DNA of 31,179 nt from a virus (Duplodnaviria; Heunggongvirae; Uroviricota; Caudoviricetes). Positions 717 through 25,490 of this stretch are shown here, piece after piece. The stretch is taken from the IMG/VR virus record IMGVR_UViG_2579779052_000007; one strand, given 5' to 3'. Under the pieces are notes generated by a model, which saw only the letters and a list, made by a program, of their open reading frames with translations, did not search any database and was not told the DNA's origin. Numbering within the stretch: the stretch's first letter is position 1; each line of letters starts with the position of its first letter. The position numbers and the translations under genes were made by a program.

Positions 717-756
717 ACCTGTGGGTATTGACTTTTGTTTACCTGTGGGTATTCTT
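717..756 (+). promoter_or_regulatory. Operator/promoter region between repressor and cro-like gene
   Basis: Two direct copies of ACCTGTGGGTAT (717-728 and 741-752); -35-like TTGACT at 728-733 and -10-like TATTCT at 750-755 with a 16-nt spacer; AAGGAG RBS precedes the ATG at 781. Confidence 0.4.
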
Positions 757-780
757 TGCTGTGTTTACTAAGGAGTAGCT

Positions 781-1062
781 ATGGAAGAATTAAGAATATT
801 TCTCAATTCTCTTTCGTCAGATGAACAGCGTATGTTTGCATGCGAGTGTGGTACCAGCATCGGTTATCTAAGAAAGGCATTGAGTAAAGGTCAAGTGTTA
901 GGGGCATCGTTATGTGTCCTTATTGAGCGAGCCAGTAATGGTGAAGTTACACGTCAGCAACTAAGGCCTTTTGATTGGATGAATATTTGGCCCGAGCTGG
1001 AAGATACCAAAACGTTAACACAACCACTTTCTAGGAGCTTGATTCATGAAAATCAAGCATGA
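781..1062 (+). CDS. Cro-like / YdaS-family HTH regulator
   Basis: 93-aa ORF divergent from the repressor gene, with an AAGGAG RBS; position and size match the Cro/YdaS slot of Rac-type immunity regions. Confidence 0.6.
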   Translation: MEELRIFLNSLSSDEQRMFACECGTSIGYLRKALSKGQVLGASLCVLIERASNGEVTRQQLRPFDWMNIWPELEDTKTLTQPLSRSLIHENQA

Positions 1063-1471
1063 ACACATCCGCATGGCGATGAATGCCTGGGCGCGTCCTG
1101 ATGGCGAAAAAGTTCCAGCAGCTGGAATAACCCAGGCTTATTTTGAGTTGGGTATGACGTTCCCGGAACTGTATGACGACAGCCATCCGGAAGCCCTGGC
1201 TCGCAATACCCAGAAAATTTTCCGCTGGGTAGAGAAAGACACCCCTGATGCTGTTGAAAAAATGCAGGCTCTGTTACCGGCGATCGAAAAGGCGATGCCG
1301 CCTTTGCTGGTGGCCCGTATGCGCAGCCACAGTTCTGAATATTACCGTGAGATCGTCGAACGGAGGGATCGGCTGGTGAAGGATGTCGATGATTTTGTTG
1401 CGTCAGCGGTTGTTTTGTATGACCAGATGAATCGCGGCGGCCCGGCAGGGAATGCTGTGGTGATGCACTAA
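1046..1471 (+). CDS. YdaT-like protein (CII functional analogue family)
   Basis: 141-aa ORF immediately downstream of and overlapping the Cro-like gene; AGGAG RBS; synteny with racR-ydaS-ydaT. Confidence 0.5.
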   Translation: MKIKHEHIRMAMNAWARPDGEKVPAAGITQAYFELGMTFPELYDDSHPEALARNTQKIFRWVEKDTPDAVEKMQALLPAIEKAMPPLLVARMRSHSSEYYREIVERRDRLVKDVDDFVASAVVLYDQMNRGGPAGNAVVMH

Positions 1472-1493
1472 AAGCACGGTGTTCGGGGGTTTT

Positions 1494-2456
1494 ATGAGCA
1501 GCAAGCTTCATGGTCTTGTCTGGGAAGGGTGCGCCTTCACCGGCATGATCTTATCCAGGGTGGCGGTTATGGCCCGTCTTGCAGACTACAGCAATGACGA
1601 GGGCGTGTCATGGCCTGCCATTGAAACTATCCGGCGTCAGATCGGTGCAAGAAGTGAATCCACAGTGAAATCGGCTATTGCAGAACTGGCGAAAGAGGGC
1701 TGGCTGACGAAGGAAGAGCGTAAGGTCGGTGGGCGTAATGTAAGCAATATCTATCGGCTTAATGTGGAAAAACTCGAAGCAGCTGCGGCGGCGGCGCGTG
1801 AGTCATATAAACCGAAAAGAAAAATTAGCCCGGCAAAAAATGACCCGTTAACAGTTGACCCGTCAAATATTGACCCCTCAACGGTTGACCCGTCAAATTT
1901 TGATGGATCAACTGTTGATAAAAAACTGCCGATTAGGGGGGCGATGATTGACCCCGATCCGTCAGTATTAAAACCTGATCCGTCAGATAAAAGATCTTCT
2001 TGTCCGGACGCTTCGCAACCGGACCCGCAGACGGCTGAACAGGATTTTTTAACCCGACACCCTGACGCGGTTGTGTTCAGTGCGAAAAAACGCCAGTGGG
2101 GAAGTCAGGAAGATTTGGTGTGCGCACAGTGGATCTGGGGACGAATCGTGAGTCTTTACGAGCAGGCGGCCAGCTATGATGGCGAGATCACTAGACCGAA
2201 AGAACCCAACTGGACAGCATGGGCCAATGACGTTCGCACAATGCGGATGCTGGATGGCAGAACTCACAGACAAATTTGTGAAATGTTTGGGCGTCTCCAG
2301 CGGGATTCGTTCTGGGTAAAAAACATCATGAGTCCGGCAAAACTCCGGGAAAAATGGGATGAACTGGTTATCCGCCTGGGGCGTTCGCCTGCGCAGCGTT
2401 GCGTGAATCACATTTCTGAACCGGACACTGAAATACCGCCGGGATTCAGGGGGTGA
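1494..2456 (+). CDS. Replication initiator, lambda O-like (HTH N-terminus, iterons inside the gene)
   Basis: ATG at 1494 preferred over the in-frame GTG at 1479; N-terminal winged-helix-like region; tandem iterons embedded at 1840-1915; followed by a DnaC-like gene. Confidence 0.7.
   Translation: MSSKLHGLVWEGCAFTGMILSRVAVMARLADYSNDEGVSWPAIETIRRQIGARSESTVKSAIAELAKEGWLTKEERKVGGRNVSNIYRLNVEKLEAAAAAARESYKPKRKISPAKNDPLTVDPSNIDPSTVDPSNFDGSTVDKKLPIRGAMIDPDPSVLKPDPSDKRSSCPDASQPDPQTAEQDFLTRHPDAVVFSAKKRQWGSQEDLVCAQWIWGRIVSLYEQAASYDGEITRPKEPNWTAWANDVRTMRMLDGRTHRQICEMFGRLQRDSFWVKNIMSPAKLREKWDELVIRLGRSPAQRCVNHISEPDTEIPPGFRG
1840..1915 (+). repeat. Origin iterons: about five tandem 15-bp repeats built on palindromic TTGACCCGTCAA
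   Basis: TGACCCGTTAACAG / TTGACCCGTCAAATA / TTGACCCCTCAACGG / TTGACCCGTCAAATT / TTGATGGATCAACTG in register; further TGATCCGTCAG repeats and an A-rich stretch follow to about 1995. Confidence 0.6.
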
Positions 2457-2462
2457 CGTGTC

Positions 2463-3209
2463 ATGAAAAACATTGCGGCAGTTGGGGTTCTTGAACGTAT
2501 TCGCAGACTTGCACCACAGGGGTCGGTTCCACCGTACCGGACGGTGGAGGAGTGGCGGGAATGGCAACTTGCTGAAGGACGAAAACGCAGCGAGGAGATT
2601 AACCGCCAGAATCGCCAGTTGCGGGTGGAAAAAATCCTGAATCGTTCGGGCATCCAGCCTCTGCACAGCAAATGCTCGTTTGCAAATTATCAGGTGCAGA
2701 ACGACGGGCAAAAATACGCGCTGAGCCAGGCCAAATCCATAGCTGACGAACTGATGACCGGGTGCACGAATTTTGTGTTCAGCGGTAAAACCGGCACCGG
2801 GAAAAATCACCTTGCAGCGGCGATGGGCAACCGGCTGATGGTGAAGGGGCGCAGCGTGATTATCGTCACCGTGTCTGACGTCATGAGCGTGTTGCATGAC
2901 AGCTACGACAACGGCAAATCCGGGGAAAAATTTTTACAGGAGCTTTGCGGGGTTGATTTGCTGGTCCTGGATGAAATAGGCGTTCAGCGGGAGACGAAAA
3001 ACGAGCAGGTGGTATTGCACCAGATAATTGATCGCCGGACAGCATCACTGTGCAGTGTCGGGATGTTAACAAACCTGAATCATGCCGCAATGAGTACGCT
3101 TCTTGGTGAGAGGATTATGGACCGCATGACCATGAACGGTGGTCGATGGGTGACGTTTAACTGGGATAGCTGGCGTCCAAATGTCAGCAATATGAGGGTT
3201 GTGAAGTAA
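2463..3209 (+). CDS. DnaC-like replicative helicase loader (IstB-like AAA+ ATPase; lambda P analogue)
   Basis: Walker A GKTGTGKNHLAAA and Walker B LLVLDEIG motifs; start codon 7 nt after the O-like stop; GGGGGTGA RBS. Confidence 0.8.
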   Translation: MKNIAAVGVLERIRRLAPQGSVPPYRTVEEWREWQLAEGRKRSEEINRQNRQLRVEKILNRSGIQPLHSKCSFANYQVQNDGQKYALSQAKSIADELMTGCTNFVFSGKTGTGKNHLAAAMGNRLMVKGRSVIIVTVSDVMSVLHDSYDNGKSGEKFLQELCGVDLLVLDEIGVQRETKNEQVVLHQIIDRRTASLCSVGMLTNLNHAAMSTLLGERIMDRMTMNGGRWVTFNWDSWRPNVSNMRVVK

Positions 3210-3230
3210 TTTTGTCCGGAGGAAATTTTA

Positions 3231-4001
3231 ATGGAAACCGTATCTGACGCACTGAAAGCACTGAAAAAAGCCTCTTCACATGTGGTGGCAGCTCGCCTTG
3301 GAATCAGTCGTGAAGAGGCTGTCAACGAGCTGTGGGAACTCAAAAGAAAAGGCGTCGTTGATAAAACTGGTCACACCTGGTTTCTGGCTGGCGAAGGTGA
3401 ATCCCGGGTAACCGAAGAGCGGCCAGTAAAATCTGAAGCACAGGATATGCTGACCGGGGAGGTCGAACAAAAAGTTACCGCAGACATGATGATTGAGTTT
3501 ATCGGTCAGGATGGGGCTAAAACGTGTGAGGAACTGGCGGGGAAGTTCGGTGTCAGTACTCGCAAGGTTGCTTCCACGCTGGCGGTGGTAACCGCAACGG
3601 GGCGGCTGGCACGCGTTAATCAGAACGGTAAATTTCGTTACTGCATGCCGGGCGATAATTTACCAGCAGAGCCGAAAGCCGCGCTGGTAACGGAAAGTGA
3701 TGGTAAGGCCTTTCCTCAGCCAGCAGGTGCTGCGTTACCAGTCCGGGAAGCCGCAACACAGGAAGAAATTAAAACAGAAACTGTGGCGGACATTGTGCAG
3801 CCGTTGCCATCGTTTACCGAAACGCAAGCAGATGAGCTGATTTTTCCGTCCCTTCGCAGGGCAAACCTGGCGCTGCGCAGGGCGAAAAGTGATGTTCAGA
3901 AGTGGGAGCGAGTCTGCGCCGCGCTGCGGGAGCTGAACAAGCACCGGGATATTGTTCGACAGATTACTGATTCTTCCCGCCGTGTTGTATCGGAAAAGTG
4001 A
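3231..4001 (+). CDS. Hypothetical phage protein
   Basis: 256-aa ORF with a GGAGG RBS in the early operon; no motif recognised. Confidence 0.4.
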   Translation: METVSDALKALKKASSHVVAARLGISREEAVNELWELKRKGVVDKTGHTWFLAGEGESRVTEERPVKSEAQDMLTGEVEQKVTADMMIEFIGQDGAKTCEELAGKFGVSTRKVASTLAVVTATGRLARVNQNGKFRYCMPGDNLPAEPKAALVTESDGKAFPQPAGAALPVREAATQEEIKTETVADIVQPLPSFTETQADELIFPSLRRANLALRRAKSDVQKWERVCAALRELNKHRDIVRQITDSSRRVVSEK

Positions 4002-4016
4002 TTGCCGGAGGCGCTT

Positions 4017-4442
4017 ATGGCAAAAGTATTTACACAAGAAGAGCGGGAAAAAATTAAAGGGCAGGTTGTTGAACTTGTACGTCTGAGCGGTCGCGAGACG
4101 TTGCGGCAACTGGAAGCCAGGACAGGTGCGACAAGATATCTGATGAGTGTTCTCGCCAGAGAGCTGGTTGCCAGTGGCGATGTATACAACTCTGGTTACG
4201 GGTTATTCCCGTCTGAACAGGCGCGTAAGGACTGGCAAAATGCTCGCAAAAAACTCTCAAGGGCAAAGGTGAAGAAACCTGCAGTGGTTGATCCGGACCT
4301 TATCTGGTCGTTACCAGACGGCGAAATACGCCGCTACGACAGGCGCCTGAATATAATCTGTCGCGAGTGCCGGAAGAGCGAAGCTATGCAGCGTGTACTG
4401 GCATTTTATCAAGGAAATGTTAGGTATTTTAGACGTTACTAG
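4017..4442 (+). CDS. Hypothetical phage protein
   Basis: GGAGG RBS before the ATG at 4017 (the track ORF begins at an upstream TTG at 4002); basic C-terminus. Confidence 0.4.
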   Translation: MAKVFTQEEREKIKGQVVELVRLSGRETLRQLEARTGATRYLMSVLARELVASGDVYNSGYGLFPSEQARKDWQNARKKLSRAKVKKPAVVDPDLIWSLPDGEIRRYDRRLNIICRECRKSEAMQRVLAFYQGNVRYFRRY

Positions 4443-4595
4443 ATTAAAGAGCATTAGTTCAGATGTGAATTGACATTTTCATGGCGCAGGGTAGAGCCAG
4501 CGTGGTTGTCCGCTTTGCGTCAAAACCAGATATTACCAGATTTAGACATATATTCCCGATAGACCTGCTCTGATGCTACACTCTGTGCTATTTTC

Positions 4596-5282
4596 ATGAC
4601 CCCAATAAAAATATTTATGACTATTGCTGATTTCAAACGGCCTAAATTGGAGCTCCCAAACGGGGCAAACAAACTACTACTGCACTCTTGCTGTGCTCCA
4701 TGTTCCGGTGAAGTGATGGAGGCGCTTCAGGCCTCGGGAATCGACTACACCATCTTTTTCTACAACCCGAACATTCATCCTCAGAAAGAGTATTTAATTC
4801 GTAAGGATGAAAATATTCGCTTTGCTGAACAACACGGCGTGCCGTTTATCGATGCTGATTACGACACCGACAACTGGTTTGAACGTGCCAAAGGAATGGA
4901 ATGGGAGCCTGAGAGGGGGATCCGTTGTACCATGTGTTTTGACATGCGTTTTGAGCGGACAGCGTTGTACGCTGCTGAAAATGGTTTCAGTGTGATCAGC
5001 AGTTCACTGGGCATTTCACGCTGGAAAAATATGCAGCAGGTTAACGAGTGTGGGCGGCGAGCTGTTGCGCATTATCCGGGTATGGTGTACTGGGATTATA
5101 ACTGGCGCAAGCAGGGCGGCTCGTCCCGTATGATTGAAATCAGCAAGCGCGAAAAATTCTATCAGCAGGAATATTGTGGCTGTGTGTATTCTCTGCGCGA
5201 TACCAATCTACACCGCAAATCTCAGGGACGCCCTCTTATCAAAATTGGCCAACTCCACTACGGAAAAGAAGAGAAGGAGTGA
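4596..5282 (+). CDS. queH: Epoxyqueuosine reductase QueH-like protein (DUF208 family)
   Basis: N-terminal [11 protein letters not shown] and C-terminal EYCGCVYS cysteine motifs as remembered for QueH; about 228 aa; stand-alone gene with its own upstream intergenic region. Confidence 0.6.
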
Positions 5283-5519
5283 TTTTATGGATCACCTTTC
5301 TGATTGATTTCATATTGGCGAGGTGACGTGAGTTAAGTAGAATGGCTGCGGGTGCTTGAGGCTATCTGTCTCAGGCATGAACACTGAAAGGCAGATAGAG
5401 AAAAGCCCCAGTTAACATTTCGCGTCCTGCAAGACGCTTAACATTAATCTGAGGCCCAATCTATGTCTCACAAATGTAGGTTAGCCTCTTACGTGCCGAA
5501 AGGCAAGGGGAAGCAGGCT

Positions 5520-5675
5520 ATGAAGCAGCAAAAGGCGATGTTAATCGCCCTGATCGTCATCTGTTTAACCGTCATAGTGACGGCACTGGTAACGAGGAAA
5601 GACCTCTGCGAGGTACGACTCCGAACCGGCCAGACGGAGGTCGCTGTCTTCACAGCTTACGAACCTGAGGAGTAA
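5520..5675 (+). CDS. hokD: Hok/Gef-family type I toxin (HokD/RelF-like)
   Basis: 51-aa translation MKQQKAMLIALIVICLTVIVTALVTRKDLCEVRLRTGQTEVAVFTAYEPEE matches the Hok/Gef signature; an in-frame upstream start at 5463 gives a mok-like leader ORF. Confidence 0.75.
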   Translation: MKQQKAMLIALIVICLTVIVTALVTRKDLCEVRLRTGQTEVAVFTAYEPEE

Positions 5676-5743
5676 GAGACCTGGCGGGGGAGAAATCCCT
5701 CGCCACCTCTGATGTGTCAGGCATCCTCAACGCACCCGCACTT

Positions 5744-5771
5744 AACCCGCTTCGGCGGGTTTTGTTTTTTT
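5744..5771 (+). terminator. Rho-independent terminator after the hok gene
   Basis: AACCCGC-TTCG-GCGGGTT hairpin followed by a T-rich run. Confidence 0.6.
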
Positions 5772-5842
5772 CTGGCATTCTGGTTTACAATTCGCACGTC
5801 AGCCTGAACACCTGACACCTGCTGCGCCAGCAGAGAAAACAG

Positions 5843-6115
5843 ATGGCGCACAAAACCAAATTTCACAATTCTGATACCGACCTTGCCATCCGGCATGGGC
5901 GGCGTTCACACGCATTTAAAACCGACTGGTACCAACACCCACCATGTACTGAAGAACAGGCCGAATGGCTAATTCATAACTACCGCAGACGCGGATACGA
6001 GATTAAGAAAGCCCTCAGCCTCGATTATCGTCACTGGATAATCTCCGTCAGGCTTCCTTACTCTGAACGCCCACCGCGTCCGTCCCGCACATTCCAGCAA
6101 CGCATCTGGAGGTAA
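5843..6115 (+). CDS. Hypothetical small protein (in the position of rem in Qin)
   Basis: 90-aa ORF whose stop is 1 nt before the next gene's GTG; its 3' end supplies a GGAGG RBS. Confidence 0.35.
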   Translation: MAHKTKFHNSDTDLAIRHGRRSHAFKTDWYQHPPCTEEQAEWLIHNYRRRGYEIKKALSLDYRHWIISVRLPYSERPPRPSRTFQQRIWR

Positions 6116-6116
6116 C

Positions 6117-7172
6117 GTGCGGGTATTACTTCGACCTGTTCTGGTACCGGAACTCGGGCTGGTGATCGTTAAGCCGGGCCGTGAATCCATGCCGGTATTC
6201 CACAATACCCGGGTACTGGTGGAGCCGGAACCGAAAAGCATGCGTAATCTGCCGTCCGGGGTCGTTCCTGCCGTTCGCCAGCCGCTGGCGGAGGATAAAT
6301 CATTACTGCCATTTTTCAGCGACGAACGAGTGATTCGTGCTGCTGGTGGCGCTGGCGCATTGTCTGACTGGTTACTGCGCCATGTTAAATCCTGCCAGTG
6401 GCCACACGGCGATTATCACCACAGTGAAACCGTCATTCACCGTTATGGTACCGGCGCAATGGTGTTGTGCTGGCACTGCGACAACCAGCTGCGCGACCAG
6501 ACCTCCGAATCACTCGGGCAACTTGCTCACCAAAACCTGTCTGCATGGATGATTGACGTCATACGCCATGCAATGAATGGCTCGCAGGAACGGGAATTAT
6601 CGCTGGCTGAATTATCCTGGTGGGCGGTCCGCAATCAGGTGGCGGACGCGCTACCGGAAGCGGTATTACGTCGTTCGCTGGGGTTGCGTGCGGAAAAAAT
6701 CCGCTCAATGTACCGTGAAAGCGACATCGTACCGGGAGAGCAGACCGCCACCAGCATACTGAAGCAGCGCACAAAAAATCTTGCGCCGCTGCCTCACGCC
6801 CACCAGCAAACCCCGCCACAGGAAAAGACGGTGGTCAGCATTGCCGTTGATCCGGAGTCACCGGCTCAGTATCTCCAGCGCCAGAAATCACAACGGGAAG
6901 AGATGCCTGTATACACGCGTTGGGTAAAAACGCAGAAATGCATGACGTGTGGCAATCAGGCAGATGATCCGCATCACATCATTGGTCATGGACTGGGAGG
7001 GATGGGAACAAAGGCTGATGATTTGTTTGTTATTCCGCTGTGCCGTAAATGCCATAGCGAACTACACGCCGGGGTAAAAGATTTTGAAGAAAAACACGGC
7101 AGCCAGCTGTTGTTGCTGATTCGTTTTTTAATGCACGCGAGAAATTCGGGTGTTCTGAAGTGGAAAGCATAA
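6117..7172 (+). CDS. DUF968 (YdfU-like) nin-region protein with a C-terminal Cys/His cluster
   Basis: 351-aa ORF with GTG start; C-terminal CMTCGN...HHIIGH...CRKCHSELH; synteny hok-rem-ydfU-rusA-Q as in Qin. Confidence 0.5.
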   Translation: MRVLLRPVLVPELGLVIVKPGRESMPVFHNTRVLVEPEPKSMRNLPSGVVPAVRQPLAEDKSLLPFFSDERVIRAAGGAGALSDWLLRHVKSCQWPHGDYHHSETVIHRYGTGAMVLCWHCDNQLRDQTSESLGQLAHQNLSAWMIDVIRHAMNGSQERELSLAELSWWAVRNQVADALPEAVLRRSLGLRAEKIRSMYRESDIVPGEQTATSILKQRTKNLAPLPHAHQQTPPQEKTVVSIAVDPESPAQYLQRQKSQREEMPVYTRWVKTQKCMTCGNQADDPHHIIGHGLGGMGTKADDLFVIPLCRKCHSELHAGVKDFEEKHGSQLLLLIRFLMHARNSGVLKWKA

Positions 7173-7538
7173 ATGACTGAACGCATAGAATTTGTTTTGC
7201 CTTACCCGCCAACGGTGAACACTTACTGGCGACGTCGTGGCAGCACATATTTTGTATCAAAAGTCGGTGAGCGTTATCGCCGTGATGTGGCGCTTATTGT
7301 TCGCCAGCAGCAACTGAAATTAAACCTGTCCGGAAGGCCGGCAATAGAAATTATTGCAGAGCCACCGGATAAGCGTCGTCGTGACCTGGACAATATCCTG
7401 AAGGCACCACTGGATGTACTGACGCATGCGGGGCTGCTCATAGACGACGAGCAGTTTGATGAAATTAATATTGTGCGCGGTCAGCTTGTTCCTGGTGGGC
7501 GGTTGGGGATAAAAATCACAGAACTGGAGTACGCATGA
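7173..7538 (+). CDS. rusA: Holliday junction resolvase RusA
   Basis: 121 aa with RusA-like motifs (RRRDLDN, catalytic Asp region, GGRL); positioned just before the Q-like gene. Confidence 0.8.
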   Translation: MTERIEFVLPYPPTVNTYWRRRGSTYFVSKVGERYRRDVALIVRQQQLKLNLSGRPAIEIIAEPPDKRRRDLDNILKAPLDVLTHAGLLIDDEQFDEINIVRGQLVPGGRLGIKITELEYA

Positions 7539-8224
7539 ATAACCAGTATTTACAGTTTGTTCGTGAGCAACTCATGATTGCCACCGCCGATTTGAGTGGA
7601 TCAACAAAAGGGCAGCTTGAGGCCTGGCAGGAGAATGCCATGTTTGATACAGGGCGTTACAGGCGTAAAAAAATCCGGTACCGCGATGAAGTGACTGGAA
7701 AAATGATAACGCGGGATAATCCACCAATCCCGGGAAAGCAATCGCTGGCGAAGGGGGTGTCAATTCCTCTCGTCAGTCCGGTTGAGTTTTCGACATCATC
7801 GTGGCGGCGGGCTGTTCTGTCTCTTGAAGAACATCATAAAGCCTGGTTGTTGTGGTGTTACAGCGGGAGTATTTGTTGGGAATATCAGATCGCGATAACG
7901 CAGTGGGTGTGGAATGAATTTAAAACCCGGTACGGCACCAGAAAAATTGCAGGGAAAACGCAGGAGCGCGTGAAGAAGTTGATCTGGCTGGCGGCACAGG
8001 ATGTCAGAGGATGGATTACCGGGTGTGAGGTCTACCAGAGACAGGAGCTTGCCAGACTGTGTGGAGTTAAGCCTGATAACTGGAGCCATAATTATGCGAA
8101 CTACTGGCGTGAGATGTGCGATATTTTTAAGAGTCTCGATAGAGAATCTGTGATTTGCACCGTGAAAATAAGAGCGCAACAAAAAGCGACTTTTTCACGA
8201 CGAGATATTGCAAAAGTCAATTAA
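7535..8224 (+). CDS. Putative late antiterminator Q-like protein
   Basis: 229-aa ORF overlapping the rusA stop (ATGA); position after rusA and before a short terminated leader; not lambda-Q-like by eye, so family unconfirmed. Confidence 0.45.
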   Translation: MNNQYLQFVREQLMIATADLSGSTKGQLEAWQENAMFDTGRYRRKKIRYRDEVTGKMITRDNPPIPGKQSLAKGVSIPLVSPVEFSTSSWRRAVLSLEEHHKAWLLWCYSGSICWEYQIAITQWVWNEFKTRYGTRKIAGKTQERVKKLIWLAAQDVRGWITGCEVYQRQELARLCGVKPDNWSHNYANYWREMCDIFKSLDRESVICTVKIRAQQKATFSRRDIAKVN

Positions 8225-10134: not shown

Positions 10135-10149
10135 CACTTATTTTCCCTG

Positions 10150-10172
10150 GCTCGCTTTTGCGGGCTTTTTTT
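10150..10172 (+). terminator. Rho-independent terminator after the tRNA cluster
   Basis: GCTCGC-TTTT-GCGGGC hairpin followed by T7. Confidence 0.5.
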
Positions 10173-10178
10173 AAATGT

Positions 10179-10392
10179 CTCACAATTCAGGCGGTTGACT
10201 GTTGTCTGGTTTGCGGGGAGTTTGTTAAAAGAAACTGGCATGGTGAATCCCCCTGTGCGGAGGGGCAATCAGCGAGTAGGTATATGGGATAATCGCGGAT
10301 TCAGGTGCTGGTACTGAATTCACCGGGAGGCACCCAGCACCATGCAATGGCACATAGCGCCACTCTCCAGCCCCTCTCCGGAGGGGCTTTTC
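10179..10392 (+). ncRNA. Candidate small RNA / late-promoter-terminator unit, copy 1
   Basis: Conserved CTCACAATTCAG box, TTGACT at 10195-10200, flanking inverted repeat GCATGGTG (10238-10245) / CACCATGC (10338-10345), terminator CCCCTC-TCCG-GAGGGG plus T-run at 10371-10392; no convincing ORF. Confidence 0.35.
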
Positions 10393-10646
10393 TGTGCCGG
10401 ATACATCACAGTTTCTGGAACCTTAGGTACTACAGTATCAGTCAGGGTGCTATATTTTCAGATGTGATGAAAGCCTGTCAGCAGGCAGGGCGTATCGGAA
10501 ATGACCCAGTAGAGAAAACGTTGACTCAGATACCGGTGCTGAGTTACCGGGAAACCGGCATCACATGACCGCTATCCTTCCAGGCCCATCCGCTCCGGTG
10601 GGCCTTTTTACTGCAGAAAACAGGTTCCCCGTTAAATGCTATGTTG

Positions 10647-10880
10647 CTCACAATTCAGTAAGTTGACAGTTGCCTGTCAGACTGGGCATTTGTTAAAAAA
10701 ATTTCGCATGGTGAATCCCCCTGAGCGGAGGGGCGACTGGTGACGGTATAATCTCTGATTATCAAAACGAGAATGACGCGGGTTTAGTGGCACCGGGCTG
10801 AACTCACCGGGAGGCACCCGGCACCATGTGCATGATGATACAGATACGCGGCTTTAGCCCCTCTCCGGAGGGGTTTTCTT
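10647..10880 (+). ncRNA. Candidate small RNA / late-promoter-terminator unit, copy 2 (paralogue of 10179-10392)
   Basis: Same architecture: CTCACAATTCAG, TTGACA at 10663-10668, GCATGGTG (10706-10713) / CACCATG (10822-10828), TATAAT at 10747-10752, terminator at 10858-10880. Confidence 0.35.
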
Positions 10881-11108
10881 GTGGGCAAAAAAAGCCCGCG
10901 CTGGGAGACGCGGGCGGCAAGGAATAAACAATAAAACGTGAAGTAATATTTCAGCTGGCGAATAATATCCGACAGTAATCACTCTGCGCAATAGCGCGGC
11001 CTTTTTCGTATTGCGGGCTGTTGTCTCTCTTCTGCCATTGTCCTGTAACTTCCGGACTTCAGCCCGCTCCTCATTTTACTCACAATATTATCCCGGCCGG
11101 GAGGATTC

Positions 11109-12962
11109 ATGGCATTTAAACACTATGATGTTGTCAGGGCGGCGTCGCCGTCAGATCTTGCGGAAAAGCTGACACATAAACTGAAAGAGGGCTGGCAGCC
11201 GTTTGGTAGTCCGGTGGCCATAACCCCTTATACCCTGATGCAGGCGATTGCAGCAGAAGGTGATGTGGTCGTCAGTGGTGCAACTGAGCCGGAGTGGTAC
11301 TACGTCATCGTACTGGCCGGGCAGTCCAATGCCATGGCTTACGGTGAAGGGCTTCCGCTTCCGGATTCATACGATGCGCCCCATCCGCGCATTAAGCAAC
11401 TGGCCCGTCGTAACACAGTGACTCCCGGTGGTGAAGTATGCGTATTTAACGACATCATTCCTGCTGACCATTGTCTGCATGATGTTCAGGATATGAGTAC
11501 GATTAACCATCCCCGGGCTGACCTGAGCAAAGGGCAGTACGGCTGTGTCGGACAGGGCTTACATATTGCCAAAAAACTGCTTCCGTATATCCCTAATAAT
11601 GCGGGGATCCTGCTGGTACCATGCTGTCGTGGTGGTTCGGCATTCACCCAGGGCGCGGAGGGGACATTCAGTGCGGACACGGGGGCCAGCCAGGATTCGG
11701 CACGCTGGGGTGTGGGTAAACCGTTATATCAGGATCTGCTTTTCCGCACGAAGGCAGCATTGCAGAAAAACCCGAAAAACGTTTTGCTGGCGATATGCTG
11801 GATGCAGGGGGAATTCGATATGACGAATGCCAGTTACGCCCAGCAGCCAGCAGCATTTCTTGCAATGGTACAGCAGTTCCGTGCTGACCTTACCGGGCTG
11901 GCGGCGCAGTGCCATGGCGGCAGTGCTGCAGTTGTACCGTGGATTTGTGGCGACACGACGTATTACTGGCAAAACACATACGGCACACAGTATGACTCCG
12001 TCTACGGCGCGTACAAAAACAGGGAGAGCGACAACGTTTTCTTTGTGCCGTTCATGACCGACGGTAACGGCAACAACACGCCCACCAACTTACCGGCAGA
12101 AGACCCGGATATTGCTGATGCAGGTTATTACGGCGCGCAATCCCGTAGTAATGGTAATTGGGTATCGTCAAATCGTCCGACACATTTCAGTTCATGGGCG
12201 CGCAGGGGCATTATTTCGGATCGCCTGGCAACCGCTATTCTGAACGCAGTTGGTCGAACCAGCGCCTTCATCAGCGGTACCGCACCGGAGATTAAACCCT
12301 CGCCCGGCGGCGACACTCCATCGGGGCCGTCTGATGGTGACACATCCGTTCGTACAGTCTCCCTGCTGCCGACAGCCGGAGAGGCTGCTGCGCAGGGCTG
12401 GACCATCACCGGCGGCAGTGTTGCGCTGGAAGATGGTGTGTTTAAGGTTACCAAGCAGAGCAATAAAACCTGGTCCCTGATGCATCCGGTGGATGACGCA
12501 GTCTCCCTGCTGACACGGGGTGGCAGACTGAGCTGTAAGTTTCGACTGTCAGGCGCACTGACCAACAACCAGTTCGGTCTGGGAATTTATCTGTATACCG
12601 ATGTAGCGTTACCTGACGTCGTGGCGATGACCGGGACTGGTAACCCGTTCCTGATGTCGTTCTTCACCCAGACCACAGACGGCAAACTGAATCTGATGCA
12701 TCACAAGAAAGCAGGAAACACAAAGTTGGGCGAGTTCGGGAATTACAGTAACGACTGGCAGACGCTGGAGCTGGTGTTCACCGCCAGCAGTGCCACGGTT
12801 ACTCCGAAACTGAATGGAGTGGCTGGCCCGGCATTCCAGGTCATAAAAGACAGTCTGACACTGGGGCTGAATGCACTGACGCTGACGGATATTACCAAAA
12901 ATGCAACGTATGGCGTTGAGATAGAAAGTCTGGTGCTGGAAATAAATAGTCCTGCAGCGTAA
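11109..12962 (+). CDS. nanS-p: NanS-p-type sialate O-acetylesterase (SGNH/SASA domain with C-terminal carbohydrate-binding-like region)
   Basis: 617 aa; GGAGG RBS; VIVLAGQSNAMAY motif of the SGNH/SASA esterase family; sits downstream of the phage tRNA cluster as the esterase gene does in Stx phages. Confidence 0.75.
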   Translation: MAFKHYDVVRAASPSDLAEKLTHKLKEGWQPFGSPVAITPYTLMQAIAAEGDVVVSGATEPEWYYVIVLAGQSNAMAYGEGLPLPDSYDAPHPRIKQLARRNTVTPGGEVCVFNDIIPADHCLHDVQDMSTINHPRADLSKGQYGCVGQGLHIAKKLLPYIPNNAGILLVPCCRGGSAFTQGAEGTFSADTGASQDSARWGVGKPLYQDLLFRTKAALQKNPKNVLLAICWMQGEFDMTNASYAQQPAAFLAMVQQFRADLTGLAAQCHGGSAAVVPWICGDTTYYWQNTYGTQYDSVYGAYKNRESDNVFFVPFMTDGNGNNTPTNLPAEDPDIADAGYYGAQSRSNGNWVSSNRPTHFSSWARRGIISDRLATAILNAVGRTSAFISGTAPEIKPSPGGDTPSGPSDGDTSVRTVSLLPTAGEAAAQGWTITGGSVALEDGVFKVTKQSNKTWSLMHPVDDAVSLLTRGGRLSCKFRLSGALTNNQFGLGIYLYTDVALPDVVAMTGTGNPFLMSFFTQTTDGKLNLMHHKKAGNTKLGEFGNYSNDWQTLELVFTASSATVTPKLNGVAGPAFQVIKDSLTLGLNALTLTDITKNATYGVEIESLVLEINSPAA

Positions 12963-12985
12963 GGAAGAACAGGAGAGCAAAACAG

Positions 12986-13453
12986 ATGCTTAAGACAAAC
13001 AGCCTCCGGAAGGGCATGATTCATGGGTGTCGCTGGTGTCAGGCCAACCCGGAAAAATTCACCATTTTCGTGGAGAGCGGCAACATTGAAACGACCGGAG
13101 AAACGCCCTCGTTTGTTTACCGCTATCAGATGGTGATGTTTGTCATGGATTACGCCGGGGAGCTGGACGACCTCACGCTGCCGCTACTGGCGTGGTTATC
13201 CGAAAATCAGCCGCAATTGTTGCTTAATCCGGAGCGTAATCAGGACATCAAATTCTCCGCCGTTATCAATGACGATGACAGCGCCGATCTCCTGTTTACG
13301 CTCCCTCTGCGGGAACGCGTTCGCATCACGCGCAGCAGTCAGGGGGCACCGCAGGCAGAACACCTGCAGGAGCCAAAACCCCGTCTGCCATCTTCCGAAG
13401 GCGACTGGTCGCATGTATTCCAGGATGTGACGTGGGGTGAAAGCGATGGATAA
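12986..13453 (+). CDS. R: P2 gpR-like tail completion protein
   Basis: 155 aa, the same length as P2 R, with recognisable similarity (LLAWL.ENQP segment); precedes an S-like gene. Confidence 0.65.
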   Translation: MLKTNSLRKGMIHGCRWCQANPEKFTIFVESGNIETTGETPSFVYRYQMVMFVMDYAGELDDLTLPLLAWLSENQPQLLLNPERNQDIKFSAVINDDDSADLLFTLPLRERVRITRSSQGAPQAEHLQEPKPRLPSSEGDWSHVFQDVTWGESDG

Positions 13454-19185: not shown

Positions 19186-19758
19186 CTATTTATACAATAC
19201 AACACCGCTCTTTTTAGTTATATATGTGCAGTTCGATGGTATATCTTTATTTATAAAAGACATTGCACCTATTTTTACATTATCCCCAATTTTACGTGAT
19301 AATCCAATGATGCAACAATTAGCTCCGATATCAACGTTACTACCAATTTTTACTCTTGAACCAGGCATGTCACCATCTATCTGTCCAATGGTAGTATTCT
19401 GTCGTAACACCAGATTTTCACCAGCATCAACAGCAAAATGAACAACAATTCCAGCATGATGGGGAATTGTTAACCCTTTTCCAATATTTGCGCCCAATCC
19501 AATTTCACAACCAAATTTGTTAATTATTTTACTGTTTAACTTTTTGGCTGCTTTCTTATGTAATTTATTACCATTAATATACATTTCGTTAGCCAACCGC
19601 CACCAGAAAAGGAAATTCCGGTTACGCTGTTTTTTCTCTCTTAAAAGCCTCCAGATATCCATACGTTTCCGCCGAATTACTTCATATTTCCAGAAGTTTT
19701 TTAAATTAGTAGAGTCCCCAAATAAAACAAAGTGAATTGCCATTAAGTAAGACAGCAC
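19186..19758 (-). CDS. Hexapeptide-repeat (left-handed beta-helix) acetyltransferase moron
   Basis: AT-rich gene on the opposite strand; repeated G.N..IG hexapeptide pattern; GTG start at 19758 with AAGGAG RBS preferred over the upstream track ATG. Confidence 0.7.
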   Translation of the reverse strand: MLSYLMAIHFVLFGDSTNLKNFWKYEVIRRKRMDIWRLLREKKQRNRNFLFWWRLANEMYINGNKLHKKAAKKLNSKIINKFGCEIGLGANIGKGLTIPHHAGIVVHFAVDAGENLVLRQNTTIGQIDGDMPGSRVKIGSNVDIGANCCIIGLSRKIGDNVKIGAMSFINKDIPSNCTYITKKSGVVLYK

Positions 19759-19914: not shown

Positions 19915-20409
19915 TCAGAGCAGCCCCTTAACTGAGCTGGTCGCGCTATTAAGGGATGATGTCACCTTATCTTTGAAGCCGGACAACATATCGCTGAACG
20001 ATGAGGATTGCAGGCGCTCCCGCAAATCCTCATCACAGCGTTCAAGAGTCAGTGAAAATTCTATCTTTTTCGCCTTACCGTAGCGATCAAACTCGGAGCG
20101 GGTCGTATTCGTTTCGGTCAGGACATACATGCCGTAAATCTGCCCGACGCCATCAATCAGAGGCCAGGGCCGTCCTGTATACGCCTGCGTGGTCAGCAGA
20201 GACAGCGACACTTCGCCACCTGTAATTTCAGGATAAAGCACACCAGAAAGAACGATGCGATCATCACCTGCACCGATATACTGCCAGCTTGCTGAACGGT
20301 TAACGCGTTCATTTTTCACATGCCGCCAGCTTTTGTTTTGCTGTAACTGCTGATGCGGCAGCGTGCGCAGCTCAAAAACAAACATGCCATAGATCATCAT
20401 CATGGCCAT
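19915..20409 (-). CDS. U: Tail protein, P2 gpU-like
   Basis: 164 aa; immediately downstream of the tape-measure gene on the minus strand. Confidence 0.75.
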   Translation of the reverse strand: MAMMMIYGMFVFELRTLPHQQLQQNKSWRHVKNERVNRSASWQYIGAGDDRIVLSGVLYPEITGGEVSLSLLTTQAYTGRPWPLIDGVGQIYGMYVLTETNTTRSEFDRYGKAKKIEFSLTLERCDEDLRERLQSSSFSDMLSGFKDKVTSSLNSATSSVKGLL

Positions 20410-20415
20410 GACTCC

Positions 20416-23259
20416 TCAATCTTTATCGTAAAAACTGCCACGCCCGGCACGGGCGCGCCGTTCCATTTCTGCCCTGACCATTTCACCGACCAGTTTCGCC
20501 AGTTCGCGGGGATTCTGCGTAACAACGTTATGCAGATGAACATGAATTTCACCGCCAAATCTGGAGACAGCAGGCTCCCGATTACGGGAAGCTGCAGGAA
20601 CTGATGCCACTGGCGATCGTATGGCCTCCGCCACCGGGCGGGAGCTGGCCGCAACAACAGGGACCAGCGCCGGAGGCAGCGGAGCCGGGACTACGGGTGT
20701 GATATTAATTGCGGGGGCAGGCTTACTGACCTGCGCAATCTTCCGCTCCTGCCACTCCCCACGAACAGCAAGTGCGCGGGGCAGGTTCTTAAAGACAATA
20801 TCGCCAGGGCCAATGCGTTTTTTCGTCTCATCAACCAGCTTACCTGTGTTATCAGCAATTTTGCTGAGTCTGCGTAGCGTCCCGGTATTGCTGTCTGTGA
20901 GCGGTTTGTTGTCTTTGGGTTTATCACCTCCGGTGCCATTGCCATTTTCCACAGGCTTCGGCGGATTGATTTTCGCCAGGTCCCCCTGAAGTAAGGCAAC
21001 CTTATCCTGAAGAATGGCCGCACGCTGTGCGTCTTCGATTTTCTTGCGCGCCCTTTCCGCTTCATCCGGAAGGACGCCAAGTTTTTCAAGTATCCACGCC
21101 AGCGTATCCAGTAGCATTTTTGCAGGTGTCAGAACAAGTTGTAACGCACCGCCAAGAACGTTACCGAATATCTCGCCAGCACTGGTACATTTATCCAGCG
21201 TTTCCTTGCTGGACTCCATCGGTGACAGCAGCGATTTAAACCAGTTAAACACCTGGCTGATCCCGCTTCCGATTGCGTCAAAAACAGGGCCAAACCGTTC
21301 AAAGGTTTCACGCAACGGGTTCAGCCTTTCCATAATCCCGCTGAACACCCCGGCAAAAAATGCCCTGATGGGATCCCAGTATTTCCAGATAAGGACGGCA
21401 GCTCCGGCAAGCGCAGCCACGATAAGACCAACCGGACTGAACAGCGCCCCGATAGCGCCTCCCAGTAAAGAAACGGAACCCGTCACCATTCCCCATAGTG
21501 CTGGCAGGACCCTGACAGCATTCATTGATCCGGTCAGGAGAGAAAAACCAAGACGCAGTTTTGCCAGCGGACCAGCAAGCACACCAATAGCCAGCGACAA
21601 CGAGCCAACCGTTGCAGTCATTGCCAGCAACGCACCGCCTGCTATCAGTAGCTGGCGCGTCAGTGCCGGATGGGCCTGCGCCAGCGCCGTCACCCTTGAT
21701 ACCACCCGCGTGAGCCACTGCGTGACAGAACGCAGCGGACCGTCAATCAGATCTGCAATGCGGATGCGCAACCCTTCCCATGCACTGCCGAGTGATTTCA
21801 GATCGCCGTCAAGGTTGTTGGCCATAACCTTTGCTGTGCGTTCAGCCTCACCGCGCGCGCCTTCAAGTTCTTTTCTCAGTTTGGGTAAGGAACCGTCACC
21901 CACTGCATCAACGAGCGCCATAAACGATGTGAAAGCCTCTTCTCCGGCAATGTCCTTAAAGAACGATACCCGGTCAACTTCCCCGTATTTGCGGGTGGCT
22001 TTATAAAGGTCGGCCAGCACATCCTCCATCGGGCGCATTTTACCCCCGGCATCCGAGACGGACACGCCCAGCTCTTTCAGAGCTTCTGCCGCCGCCTTTG
22101 GCGGTGATGCCAGACGAGCCAGGCTGGCACGCATTGCCGTCCCGGCATCACTCCCTCTGATGCCCATATTCGCCAGCACACCAGCCATCGCTGCGGCCTG
22201 CTCCAGCGATATTCCCAGCTTACCCGCCACCGGACCTGCATATTTCATGGTTTCGCCCAGTGCGCGAAGGTCAGTGTTGGTACGGGTAAACGCTGCGGTG
22301 AGTGTGTCACCGACCCGGTCCATCTGGTCAGCAGAAAGGCCGAACTGCGTCAGGATATTTGAGCCAATATCTGCCGTCTCGCCGAGATCCATACCGCCAG
22401 CCGTTGCCATGCTCAGCACTCCGGGAAGCGCAGCCTGAATGGCCTGCGGTGTGAAGCCTGCCATTGCAAGAAATGCCTGCCCACTGGCGGCATCGCCTGC
22501 GGTGAACTGCGTTTCAGAGCCAAGTTTTAACGCCTGCTCACGCAGCGCCTTAAACTGCGGGCTGTTCTGGTCGATTCGCGTCAGCGCCTGAACGCGGGAC
22601 ATCTCTTTGCCGAACCCGATCGCGGGCTGCAAAAAACGCCCGGCAGCATAGCCGCCCGCCGCTGCCGCACCAATTGCCAGCGCACCACCTGTTTTCAGTT
22701 TTCCCGCGGTTTCCTGCGCGCGCGAATACCACTCACGCGCCCGCGTTACACGCGCAAGCGCCTGCCGTTCGCGTTCAAGCTGGTTGTTGTACTGTTCGGT
22801 GCGTCTGATGGCCTGCTGGATGGTGTTATCGCTGCCTGTCAGGGAAATGCCGTGGCGTTTCAGCTCTCCGCCAAGCTCCCGCATTTTCTGAATTTCCCGT
22901 GTGCGCGATTCATTCAGGCGTTCAAGCCGGGTGCTTAACTGCTGCATCAGCTTTTGTTGTTTTTCGCTGAGCACTGTACCCGTGCGTTGTAACTGATTAA
23001 GGGCGTTAAGCTGGCGTCGTGCTTTCACGATACCCGCATCCGCTTTACTGACAGCGTCGCGGGCGCGCTCAAATGAACGAGCCTGACGCTCGAGATTTTT
23101 AATCGCCCCCTGCGTTCGCTGGATGGAGTCACCAAACTGCCCCATCAGGCGGCGGGCGTTTTCGGCAGGCCGGGTCAGCCTGTCAACGGCGCTGAAAGCG
23201 ACCCGGATATCAAGAGTCTTCATTGTCTGCATTCCCGCTGCGAAGTGCCGCCCGCTCAC
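20416..23259 (-). CDS. T: Tail tape measure protein, P2 gpT-like
   Basis: Long alpha-helical, Gly/Ala-rich protein; true start probably at one of the internal ATGs at 23232 or 23223. Confidence 0.8.
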   Translation of the reverse strand: MSGRHFAAGMQTMKTLDIRVAFSAVDRLTRPAENARRLMGQFGDSIQRTQGAIKNLERQARSFERARDAVSKADAGIVKARRQLNALNQLQRTGTVLSEKQQKLMQQLSTRLERLNESRTREIQKMRELGGELKRHGISLTGSDNTIQQAIRRTEQYNNQLERERQALARVTRAREWYSRAQETAGKLKTGGALAIGAAAAGGYAAGRFLQPAIGFGKEMSRVQALTRIDQNSPQFKALREQALKLGSETQFTAGDAASGQAFLAMAGFTPQAIQAALPGVLSMATAGGMDLGETADIGSNILTQFGLSADQMDRVGDTLTAAFTRTNTDLRALGETMKYAGPVAGKLGISLEQAAAMAGVLANMGIRGSDAGTAMRASLARLASPPKAAAEALKELGVSVSDAGGKMRPMEDVLADLYKATRKYGEVDRVSFFKDIAGEEAFTSFMALVDAVGDGSLPKLRKELEGARGEAERTAKVMANNLDGDLKSLGSAWEGLRIRIADLIDGPLRSVTQWLTRVVSRVTALAQAHPALTRQLLIAGGALLAMTATVGSLSLAIGVLAGPLAKLRLGFSLLTGSMNAVRVLPALWGMVTGSVSLLGGAIGALFSPVGLIVAALAGAAVLIWKYWDPIRAFFAGVFSGIMERLNPLRETFERFGPVFDAIGSGISQVFNWFKSLLSPMESSKETLDKCTSAGEIFGNVLGGALQLVLTPAKMLLDTLAWILEKLGVLPDEAERARKKIEDAQRAAILQDKVALLQGDLAKINPPKPVENGNGTGGDKPKDNKPLTDSNTGTLRRLSKIADNTGKLVDETKKRIGPGDIVFKNLPRALAVRGEWQERKIAQVSKPAPAINITPVVPAPLPPALVPVVAASSRPVAEAIRSPVASVPAASRNREPAVSRFGGEIHVHLHNVVTQNPRELAKLVGEMVRAEMERRARAGRGSFYDKD

Positions 23260-23424
23260 GCCAGCTAACCACTTCGCCGGGCGTCATCATGAAGATTTCG
23301 GCGGGCGACCAGTTAAAAATAACGGCAATATCTGCCACAAAGTCTTCTATGTGCTCAAAGCACACAACCGTGATCAGGCTTCCGTCGCCTGTTCGTTCTT
23401 CCCGCCAGAGTCCGCACCGCTCAA
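23210..23424 (-). CDS. E': E' extension reached by programmed -1 frameshift (gives the E+E' fusion)
   Basis: The -1 frame opens directly after the minus-strand heptamer and continues ERCGLWREERTGDG...WSPAEIFMMTPGEVVSWRERAAL to a stop at 23210-23212. Confidence 0.6.
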
Positions 23425-23739
23425 AAAATTTACGGCAACCACACATAACTGAATAAAGTCACGGGATGCCATTTTTTTGATCGTCACTTCATCCAGTCGC
23501 GGTGATGTCACGCGTGACAGCAACGTAAACATGGATTCCGCTTTCAGATTCAGCACATCAGACAGCGACAAATCTCGCAGAGATCCAGCCTGCTCAATAG
23601 CCCCGGTGATCTCCACATACGTGATTTTTTCGCCGCCTCGCTCAATTGGTTGGGTAAGTTTTACACCACGCTCACTGGTTTCTTTCACAGTGTCAGCAAC
23701 TACCGTGTTTTCGGTATCGATGTTTTTCGTCTCTTTCAT
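23374..23739 (-). CDS. E: Tail assembly chaperone, P2 gpE-like
   Basis: 121-aa ORF between the tube and tape-measure genes; contains the T TTT TTG slippery heptamer near its 3' end. Confidence 0.7.
   Translation of the reverse strand: MKETKNIDTENTVVADTVKETSERGVKLTQPIERGGEKITYVEITGAIEQAGSLRDLSLSDVLNLKAESMFTLLSRVTSPRLDEVTIKKMASRDFIQLCVVAVNFLSGADSGGKNEQATEA
23422..23428 (-). other. Slippery heptamer T TTT TTG for the E/E' -1 frameshift
   Basis: Plus-strand CAAAAAA at 23422-23428; in the E frame the minus strand reads AAT TTT TTG. Confidence 0.6.
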
Positions 23740-23793
23740 CAGGAAACTCCTTTCAGTCAGAGGCGACGCACTGCGCCGCCTGCATATTACTTA

Positions 23794-24306
23794 TCAGCCA
23801 AGCCCGAGCGCGGAACGGATGCGATCGGGCACAATGTCCTTGCCGTCCTTCCGGTAAATGAAGTTCAGCAGGTCAATCTCCCACAACGGGCGATCGTTAA
23901 CACTCAGCTTGTAGTAGGTGTTTTTAATGGCGTAAGTGTGTGATGTGGCTTCGCCCTGTTTGGCTTCCCCCATATCAATTTCCGTCACACGTCCGCGCAT
24001 TTCGACTTCATACAGGTCGCTTTCTGCATCGGTGTAATATTCACCCGCAAAACGCAGCAGCGTGCCGTCAATCGTGCCGCCATACTTAAGGAACAGCTCA
24101 CGAACTGCGCCCCCCATGACAAAGCTCGCATCAAGCGCGGAGTCGTCCAGACCGAGATCAATACTTACCGCACCCATCATGCCACCACCCCGGTAGCTGT
24201 CGGTTTTGCGCGTCAGCTTAGGCAGAGTGACGGACGTCACCTTACCCACTTCGTTTTCACCATCCACAAACAGCGTAAAAAAGCGAAGATGTTTTGGTAC
24301 AGCCAT
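23794..24306 (-). CDS. FII: Tail tube protein, P2 gpFII-like
   Basis: 170 aa; directly follows the sheath gene with overlapping start and stop. Confidence 0.85.
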   Translation of the reverse strand: MAVPKHLRFFTLFVDGENEVGKVTSVTLPKLTRKTDSYRGGGMMGAVSIDLGLDDSALDASFVMGGAVRELFLKYGGTIDGTLLRFAGEYYTDAESDLYEVEMRGRVTEIDMGEAKQGEATSHTYAIKNTYYKLSVNDRPLWEIDLLNFIYRKDGKDIVPDRIRSALGLG

Positions 24307-25490
24307 CAGGCACCTCCCAGCACCGCAAATGCGGGTTCAAAGTATTCATCAGTAAACGTCTGGTAAAGCTCCATGTCTTCCAGTGGCGGAACGGGCGTAT
24401 ATTTGTAGCGAATACGCACACGCCCCTGACGTAAATCCGTGGTGCTGTTATCCACCACGTCATACCAGCACTCCGCGCCAATCAGTTTCCCGGCAGTAAC
24501 CAGCGAATCCAGTTTTGCCCTGATGGCACTGATAACATCCTTCACGTTCGCAGGCGTCAGTGGACTGTCGATGGTTTCAAACTGCGCTTCCGCAATTGAA
24601 TCAGCCAGCACCTGTGCGGTTCGGGTATACACCTCAAAGATGTAGGCGTTCGTTTCCGGTGTGCGGTTGCCCCAGAAGCGGAACCCGTTGCGACGAATAA
24701 TGGTCGTGATTTCTTTGTTGTTGAGGCTGTTGGCATCACTGTCTTCGGCCTGCAACGACCAGAAAACATGCCTGGACATCCCCAGCACATTTTTAACAGG
24801 AACGTTGGACAGCGATTTGTGCCAGCCCTGCTCATGGTCAATGTACGCACGAAGGCCGCACGCATAGGCAGGCGCGGGGAACGTTTCGTTTTTGCCACTT
24901 TTCGGGTTGTAGGCGATGAAGTCCGGCCATAAGAGCATCACCTCACGTTCGTTGAATTTCTGGCGGTAGGTAATTGCCTCAGCCATCGTGTTACAGTCAT
25001 GACATGAGGCATACACAAACGCGCGCAGTTTACCCGCAATCACGCACAGGGATTTTGTCACCGCCTCCGTGTCCAGCTCCGGCGCGGCCAGAATACGCGG
25101 ACGGTATCCGATGCTTTCATCCTGCTCTGCAACAAGCAGCGCATACATCCCCGTATAGCTGCCGTCAGATTCAGAACCACCGATAACCAGTTGATCCTGC
25201 GTCTTACCGCCTTCTTCTTTGTGTTCAGCCACGCGAACGACGATCACTTTTGTGCTCACCTGGTCTGCAATAGCCTTAAGCGCACGATAAAGCGTCCCCG
25301 TAGTCCCGCATTTTCCCAGCACGTCATTGACGCGGGTCAGCAGTGTGGGCTTGTTCAGCGGGAACAGCTCCGCGTCCGCATCATCCGCCGTTGCCACGAT
25401 ACCGATAACACTGGAATCAACATCATTAATCGCTGTTACCAGGTCGGTACTTTCCGTAACACGGGCACCATGAAAACGAGTTTCACTCAT
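24306..25490 (-). CDS. FI: Contractile tail sheath protein, P2 gpFI-like
   Basis: 394 aa (P2 FI is about 396); conserved sheath-like C-terminus. Confidence 0.85.
   Translation of the reverse strand: MSETRFHGARVTESTDLVTAINDVDSSVIGIVATADDADAELFPLNKPTLLTRVNDVLGKCGTTGTLYRALKAIADQVSTKVIVVRVAEHKEEGGKTQDQLVIGGSESDGSYTGMYALLVAEQDESIGYRPRILAAPELDTEAVTKSLCVIAGKLRAFVYASCHDCNTMAEAITYRQKFNEREVMLLWPDFIAYNPKSGKNETFPAPAYACGLRAYIDHEQGWHKSLSNVPVKNVLGMSRHVFWSLQAEDSDANSLNNKEITTIIRRNGFRFWGNRTPETNAYIFEVYTRTAQVLADSIAEAQFETIDSPLTPANVKDVISAIRAKLDSLVTAGKLIGAECWYDVVDNSTTDLRQGRVRIRYKYTPVPPLEDMELYQTFTDEYFEPAFAVLGGA

Follow-up and report, generated by a model that had tools for sequence, protein, structure and literature searches.

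The DNA analyzed here (hereafter, the window) is a stretch of 31,179 nucleotides at the start of contig JJLU01000069.1 (98,662 bp) in the draft genome of Escherichia coli 1-250-04_S3_C1, window position 1 being record position 3. This colony comes from a Tanzanian child-cohort study in which up to three colonies were sequenced per stool sample, and its genome was assembled with MaSuRCA 2.3.2 from 100-bp HiSeq reads (PMC6222053). A second colony, S3_C2, originates from the same 3-month stool sample of the same child and presents the same sequence type (ST3036) and the same serotype (O97:H45) as S3_C1 (PMC6222053).

Lambdoid left arm and P2-like right arm

The left part of the window carries a fragment of IS1 followed by the regulatory and late leader regions of a lambdoid prophage:

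1..253, minus strand: IS1 fragment (N-terminal part of InsA; Pfam match) at the contig end, an assembly break point
254..8224, plus strand: lambdoid immunity, replication and nin-like region (Pfam scans; 99.9% identity to lambdoid prophages of complete genomes, e.g., CE10)
261-680, minus strand: repressor-like gene (lambdoid immunity region)
781-1062, plus strand: YdaS/Cro-like gene (Pfam scan)
1046-1471, plus strand: YdaT gene (Pfam scan)
1494-2456, plus strand: O-like gene (Pfam scan)
2463-3209, plus strand: P/IstB-like gene (Pfam scan)
Between the P/IstB-like gene and QueH, plus strand: DUF1627 and DUF977 genes (Pfam scan)
4596-5282, plus strand: QueH epoxyqueuosine reductase, cargo gene of the lambdoid early region (Pfam scan)
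5463-5675, plus strand: hok toxin, cargo gene of the lambdoid early region (Pfam scan)
6117-7172, plus strand: DUF968 gene (Pfam scan)
7173-7538, plus strand: RusA gene (Pfam scan)
7535-8224, plus strand: Q antiterminator (Phage_antiter_Q, E = 1.4e-83)
8786-9835, plus strand: DNA methylase (Pfam scan)
9885-10134, plus strand: cluster of three tRNAs (CAU anticodon, Arg-UCG and Arg-UCU; ARAGORN/RefSeq)
10149..11000, plus strand: terminator-rich leader between the tRNAs and the esterase gene (predicted hairpins)

The IS1 gene call (positions 1-200 of locus L009, minus strand) matches PF03811 and PF12759 in the Pfam scan. Both sibling colonies carry this IS1 insertion immediately to the left of the lambdoid repressor-like gene (window 1-253; positions 1-308 of locus L008), and the S3_C2 contig JOSR01000057.1 also terminates at the same IS1. 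It is missing from the complete genomes, whose best listed matches (99.9% identity) begin only at base 254. The initial annotation had remarked that no integrase is seen; none was indeed found in the window by tblastn, but this absence is uninformative because the contig ends inside IS1 at the window start. Downstream of IS1, positions 254-10600 are 99.9% identical to the lambdoid prophage of CE10. In CE10, this prophage is inserted at ompW and its esterase gene is oriented like the copy of the P2-like prophage at leuZ.

The gene Q is followed by a terminator-rich late leader, as in a lambdoid late operon. We identified five terminator-like hairpins on the plus strand of the leader (at 10149, 10369, 10582, 10856 and 10984) and two others just after Q (at 8295 and 8622), for a total of seven between Q and the esterase gene. 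This arrangement is as expected for a putative Q-antiterminated late transcript. The holin-endolysin-spanin, terminase, portal and capsid genes of such an operon were not found after the leader by tblastn. The order of Q, methylase, three tRNAs and nanS-p is the layout of Stx-phage late regions, but the interval from the tRNAs to the esterase gene (10135-11108) contains no stx genes. In relatives, the annotation of this interval comprises only terminator-like hairpins and a pseudogene remnant. The tRNA with the CAU anticodon is assigned to Met by ARAGORN and to Ile by RefSeq.

The right part of the window corresponds to the tail genes and the right end of a P2-like prophage:

12986-13453, plus strand: R (P2_Phage_GpR, E = 1e-37; 155 aa)
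13446-14081, plus strand: S (Pfam)
14093-14659, plus strand: V (Pfam)
14656-15006, plus strand: W (Pfam)
15010-15906, plus strand: J (Pfam)
15899-16429, plus strand: I (Pfam)
16432-18564, plus strand: H, tail fibre (Pfam)
18564-19142, plus strand: G, fibre chaperone (Pfam)
19186..19758, minus strand: hexapeptide acetyltransferase, cargo gene between G and U
19915..25490, minus strand: U, T (tape measure), E', E, FII (tube) and FI (sheath) (Pfam/tblastn)
23213-23365, minus strand: E'
23374-23739, minus strand: E
25648-26748, plus strand: gpD
27148-28287, plus strand: SEC-C/YecA-family cargo gene between D and ogr (low GC-content, about 40%)
28577-28837, plus strand: ogr late activator
30109..30232, no strand assigned: attR, a 124-bp repeat overlapping the 3' end of tRNA-Leu (leuZ), which also adjoins int in SCU-105
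30178-30264: tRNA-Leu leuZ (tRNA prediction), with the host genes cysT, glyW and pgsA after it

Positions 13500-30150 are 100.0% identical to the P2-like prophage found at the same yecA|leuZ site in SCU-105; this match extends back to 12570, and the R protein is 100% identical to the SCU-105 copy. An Ogr/Delta zinc-finger late activator and a right-end att site are both present, as in P2-like prophages. In contrast, R and S do not directly follow a lysis cassette, since no lysis gene is present upstream. The essential tail set is also incomplete: R, S, V, W, J, I, H, G, FI, FII, E, E', T, U and D are intact but X is missing, a gene that the P2 record describes as an essential tail gene and as the baseplate hub. 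Finally, the head and packaging genes Q, P, O, N, M and L, as well as int, C, cox and A, are missing from the window; all of them are present in SCU-105.

We searched the window by tblastn using the proteins of both parental phage types as queries. No match was obtained for holin, endolysin, spanin, terminase, portal, capsid, scaffold, X, integrase or replication protein queries. The positive controls R, D, E, E' and ogr yielded 100% matches in the same window, and the Pfam scans of the main ORFs agreed with the tblastn results. The initial annotation was thus correct in stating that the 31 kb contain no head or lysis genes.

A hybrid esterase gene

The two arms meet in an esterase gene, which can be divided as follows:

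11109-12962, plus strand: esterase of 617 aa with the domains DUF1737, SASA and DUF6645 (NanS-p type; all three Pfam domains above cut-offs)
11109..12569, plus strand: lambdoid-derived part of the esterase gene (DUF1737, SASA and start of DUF6645; three-way alignment)
12570..12712, plus strand: crossover interval of 143 bp, identical in both parental alleles (three-way alignment)
12713..12985, plus strand: P2-like-derived 3' end of the esterase gene and 23-nt spacer (three-way alignment)

The three domains of NanS-p are found in one intact prophage ORF, from which its identity as a sialate O-acetylesterase is predicted. The nanS-p-type gene ends at 12962 and the P2 gpR-like gene starts at 12986, as first annotated, and Pfam confirms the domains of these genes. 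A spacer of 23 nt (12963-12985) separates the two genes.

It is this spacer that was originally proposed to be the joint of a chimera. However, the esterase-R-S-V segment was found as one piece in 373 (375 when a shorter query was used) of the 5,426 complete E. coli genomes, and the spacer before R, together with both of its flanks, is native to intact P2-like prophages. The full P2-like prophages of O104:H4 2011C-3493 and SCU-105 present the order L, X, holin, endolysin, LysB, LysC, esterase, R, S and V. In the P2 record, R directly follows lysC and the genes O to S form one operon. Because P2 itself has the order lysC-R, the esterase gene that separates the two in this P2-like group represents an inserted cargo gene. 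No isolated phage of the phage collection was found to carry esterase-R, and this arrangement is therefore known only from prophages. In the lambdoid relatives (CE10, PEA14-20, 102651 and the sibling colony), the esterase gene is followed by holin, lysozyme, Rz, terminase, portal and capsid genes. The comparison of the junction with related genomes, which the initial annotation had called for, thus reveals the normal layout of a common P2-like prophage at the esterase-R boundary, and the true switch lies further upstream, at 12570-12712.

The lambdoid parent was identified from the sibling colony. The exact DUF968 protein of the window is found on three contigs only, one of which is JOSR01000057.1 of S3_C2. 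This contig is 99.93% identical to window positions 1-12947; over positions 1-12712, the two sequences differ by only three substitutions and one indel, all located before 8674, and there is not a single mismatch over 11050-12712. The S3_C2 esterase gene (618 aa) continues into holin, lysozyme and Rz.

We then relied on a three-way alignment of the window, the lambdoid allele of S3_C2 and the P2-like allele of SCU-105 to locate the switch. The window matches the lambdoid allele and differs from the P2-like allele at 220 sites, the last of which is at 12569, and it matches the P2-like allele and differs from the lambdoid allele at 25 sites, the first of which is at 12713. No site of the esterase region in this alignment fits neither parent. 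The two parental alleles share 86% identity over their common 1.67 kb, and the 143 bp that separate the two sets of sites constitute their longest perfect block. The switch from lambdoid to P2-like sequence is therefore in frame inside the esterase ORF, 250-390 bases upstream of the boundary that was flagged. This anatomy of the window is nearly certain. Two other breakpoints, one at ~11288 (the start of the megablast match) and one in the last codons of the esterase gene (relative to O104:H4 and PEA14-20), were discarded as artefacts of the comparators; the true parents yield 12570-12712.

P2-type esterase alleles are themselves mosaics over window positions 11290-12962, as observed by comparison with loci L001, L005, L002 and L003. 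The O104:H4 allele is near-identical to lambdoid alleles at ~11904-12705, where the SCU-105 allele differs, and the reverse is observed at ~12882-12944. These patterns suggest that the lambdoid and P2-like copies of this cargo gene have repeatedly exchanged patches of sequence.

Assembly misjoin, recombination or tail-only element

The join between the two arms appears to be unique. By exact look-up among ~15 billion proteins, the hybrid esterase was found on one contig, when the neighboring gpR is found on at least 1,000 contigs. The joint observed in the window was absent from all 5,426 complete E. coli genomes, and so was the reciprocal joint, which we searched for with a synthetic query linking the P2 lysis region to the lambdoid holin region. 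The protein predicted for the reciprocal hybrid is likewise missing from the record, and the parental alleles are found on 139 and 27 contigs. The esterase gene is multi-copy in complete E. coli genomes (median of two and up to 15 places per genome) and draft assemblies often break in it, as judged from the many partial esterase proteins on record at contig ends. In addition, the 143-bp identity block exceeds the length of the 100-bp reads. Considering the unique hybrid contig, the lack of a reciprocal product, the break-prone multi-copy gene, a block longer than the reads and the unrearranged sibling, we infer that the join is probably an assembly misjoin (probability of about 0.6). MaSuRCA would have taken the wrong exit from a repeat common to two resident prophages, and the strain would possess two ordinary prophages, one lambdoid (esterase-holin) and the other a complete P2-like one (lysC-esterase-R). 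The sequence left of ~12570-12712 belongs to the IS1-interrupted lambdoid prophage (immunity, replication, Q, methylase, tRNAs and most of the esterase gene), and the sequence right of it is the right arm of the leuZ P2-like prophage (the last 250-390 bases of the esterase gene, R-G, the inverted FI-U block, D, ogr and attR). The chimera described by the initial annotation is real in the contig, in that a lambdoid left arm is joined to a P2-like right arm, but this join is more likely a misjoin than a property of the cell. An assembly artefact, which that annotation had named as the outcome that would speak against it, is now the likelier reading, short of proof.

Alternatively, it is possible, although less probable, that the join represents a genuine one-off homologous recombinant that arose in the S3_C1 lineage within the 143-bp block, via RecA or a phage recombinase. 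The switch is clean, in frame and located in the longest identity block, as predicted by homologous recombination, and the lambdoid-type patches carried by P2-type alleles indicate that exchange within the esterase gene happens in nature. Such an event could have occurred by loss of the DNA between direct repeats lying close together, by inversion, or by Campbell-type integration, in which a circular lambdoid genome enters the P2-like prophage. By the last two routes, a reciprocal hybrid gene should also have formed, but none was found; its absence from the record fits a deletion. On the K-12 map, ompW and leuZ lie ~680 kb apart, with essential genes in between. A deletion between these sites would remove them and be lethal if the lambdoid prophage resides at ompW as in CE10, although this position is borrowed from CE10 and may not hold for the S3_C1 clone. 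The S3_C1 assembly is smaller than the S3_C2 assembly by ~220 kb (respectively, 5,098,119 bp in 203 contigs and 5,318,327 bp in 306 contigs, for the same ST and serotype; Table S1 of PMC6222053). It is possible that plasmids, contamination or real loss account for this gap, and a real loss could contribute to it. Read pairs from fragments of ~145-340 bp can in principle bridge a 143-bp repeat, such that MaSuRCA may be right. Against recombination, the join is known from a single draft contig and is absent from the sibling colony and, in either polarity, from 5,426 complete genomes. Moreover, repeat misjoins are not rare in short-read assemblies and rearrangements separating two colonies of one stool are rare, which makes a recent rearrangement of this kind far less likely beforehand than a misjoin. 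We nevertheless retain recombination as a possible explanation since read pairs can bridge the repeat, a deletion leaves no reciprocal product, the S3_C1 assembly is smaller and the position of the lambdoid prophage is that of another strain. If the join is real, R to G would be co-transcribed, as there is no plus-strand terminator between the esterase gene and R and the gap between S and V is only 11 nt, a layout that is itself compatible with a genuine recombinant. R-G would then be expressed as part of the lambdoid late transcript, antiterminated by Q, and FI-U and D would still depend on ogr. The locus would make neither heads nor lysis proteins, lacks X, and would constitute a defective hybrid rather than a tailocin. 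That two prophages of different families truly recombined via nanS-p in the child's gut or in culture, placing the P2 tail-completion, baseplate and fibre genes (R-G) under Q, is a possibility that we regard as less likely than a misjoin.

The initial annotation also raised the possibility of a domesticated tail-only element, in which a P2-type tail would be driven by lambdoid regulation. The window does contain a nearly full and intact set of P2-type tail genes with ogr, no head genes, and the lambdoid Q and late leader upstream. In this respect it resembles R-type pyocins and P2-related tailocins, with contractile tail genes and no head genes in the stretch. Tailocin loci, however, generally keep a gpX homologue and a lysis cassette at a fixed locus conserved across strains. 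Here, the tail set is not self-sufficient and has no lysis cassette of its own (X, holin, endolysin and spanin are all absent), and the absence of the essential tail gene X indicates that this is not a working tail-only element. The head-less arrangement is not conserved across strains: it is a singleton, found on one contig worldwide and neither in the sibling colony nor in any of the 5,426 complete genomes. Furthermore, the tail genes match their counterparts in the complete SCU-105 prophage at 100.0% identity and present no sequence sign of separate evolution, and the join itself may not exist in the cell. A domesticated tail-only element is thus very improbable, and we favor the misjoin of two ordinary prophages.

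Relation to known prophages and gene order of the P2-like arm

Each component of the window is an ordinary member of a known family: a NanS-p esterase, a non-Stx lambdoid prophage and a leuZ P2-like prophage. The latter (Peduoviridae) is found in SCU-105 (NZ_CP051738.1) and in O26, O103 and O111 strains, and a related prophage is located elsewhere in O104:H4. The window shares with the SCU-105 prophage the esterase gene followed by 23 nt and R, the acetyltransferase and SEC-C cargo genes, the inverted FI-U block and attR in leuZ. In contrast to that prophage, it lacks the left arm (int, C, A, portal, terminases, capsid, L, X, holin, endolysin and LysB/C) as well as the 5' three-quarters of the P2-like esterase allele. 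The window likewise resembles the non-Stx lambdoid prophages of CE10 (at ompW) and S3_C2 in its Q-methylase-tRNA-NanS-p order and its high identity, but its esterase gene runs into the P2 gpR gene when theirs run into holin, lysozyme, Rz and head genes.

The DUF1737-SASA-DUF6645 architecture is that of the NanS-p esterases, such as the EDL933 and O104:H4 alleles and vb_24B_21 of phage phi24B. Members of this family have been described in both Stx and non-Stx prophages, and genomes carry several alleles each (PMC8065619, PMC10462455). Unlike the known NanS-p genes, the gene of the window is a hybrid of two alleles, and its esterase function is predicted from its domains.

The join would represent at most a new instance of phage mosaicism generated by homologous exchange at a common gene, and it is more likely an assembly chimera. 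For annotation purposes, our results indicate that NanS-p-type esterases are not confined to lambdoid prophages: they also occur in a widespread P2-like group, where they lie between lysC and R. They also call for caution, as a common multi-copy cargo gene that breaks or misjoins in short-read assemblies can give the appearance of "head-less" chimeric prophages. Should the join be real, it would provide a small but concrete case of two phage families exchanging DNA through a common cargo gene, caught in the act, with the cargo gene serving as a homology bridge.

Finally, the gene order of the P2-like arm departs from that of P2 in several respects. The S protein is 211-214 aa long (vs. 150 aa in P2) and its gene ends 11 nt before V. 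This stretch (window 13446-14093) is devoid of the Orf30, the terminator and the V-promoter region that are present in P2. Given the 11 nt between S and V, a separate V promoter may be missing in this P2-like group, and R to G may form one transcription unit with the upstream operon. Ogr-type TGT-N12-ACA sites were not enriched in the window (seven matches vs. eight expected by chance), and none of them is located near V or FI. The FI-FII-E-E'-T-U block (minus strand) is inverted relative to canonical P2, in which FI to D share one direction. Owing to this inversion, FI and D diverge from an intergenic region of ~157 bp. The same inverted FI-U layout is observed in SCU-105 and O104:H4, which makes it a trait of the prophage group rather than of the window.
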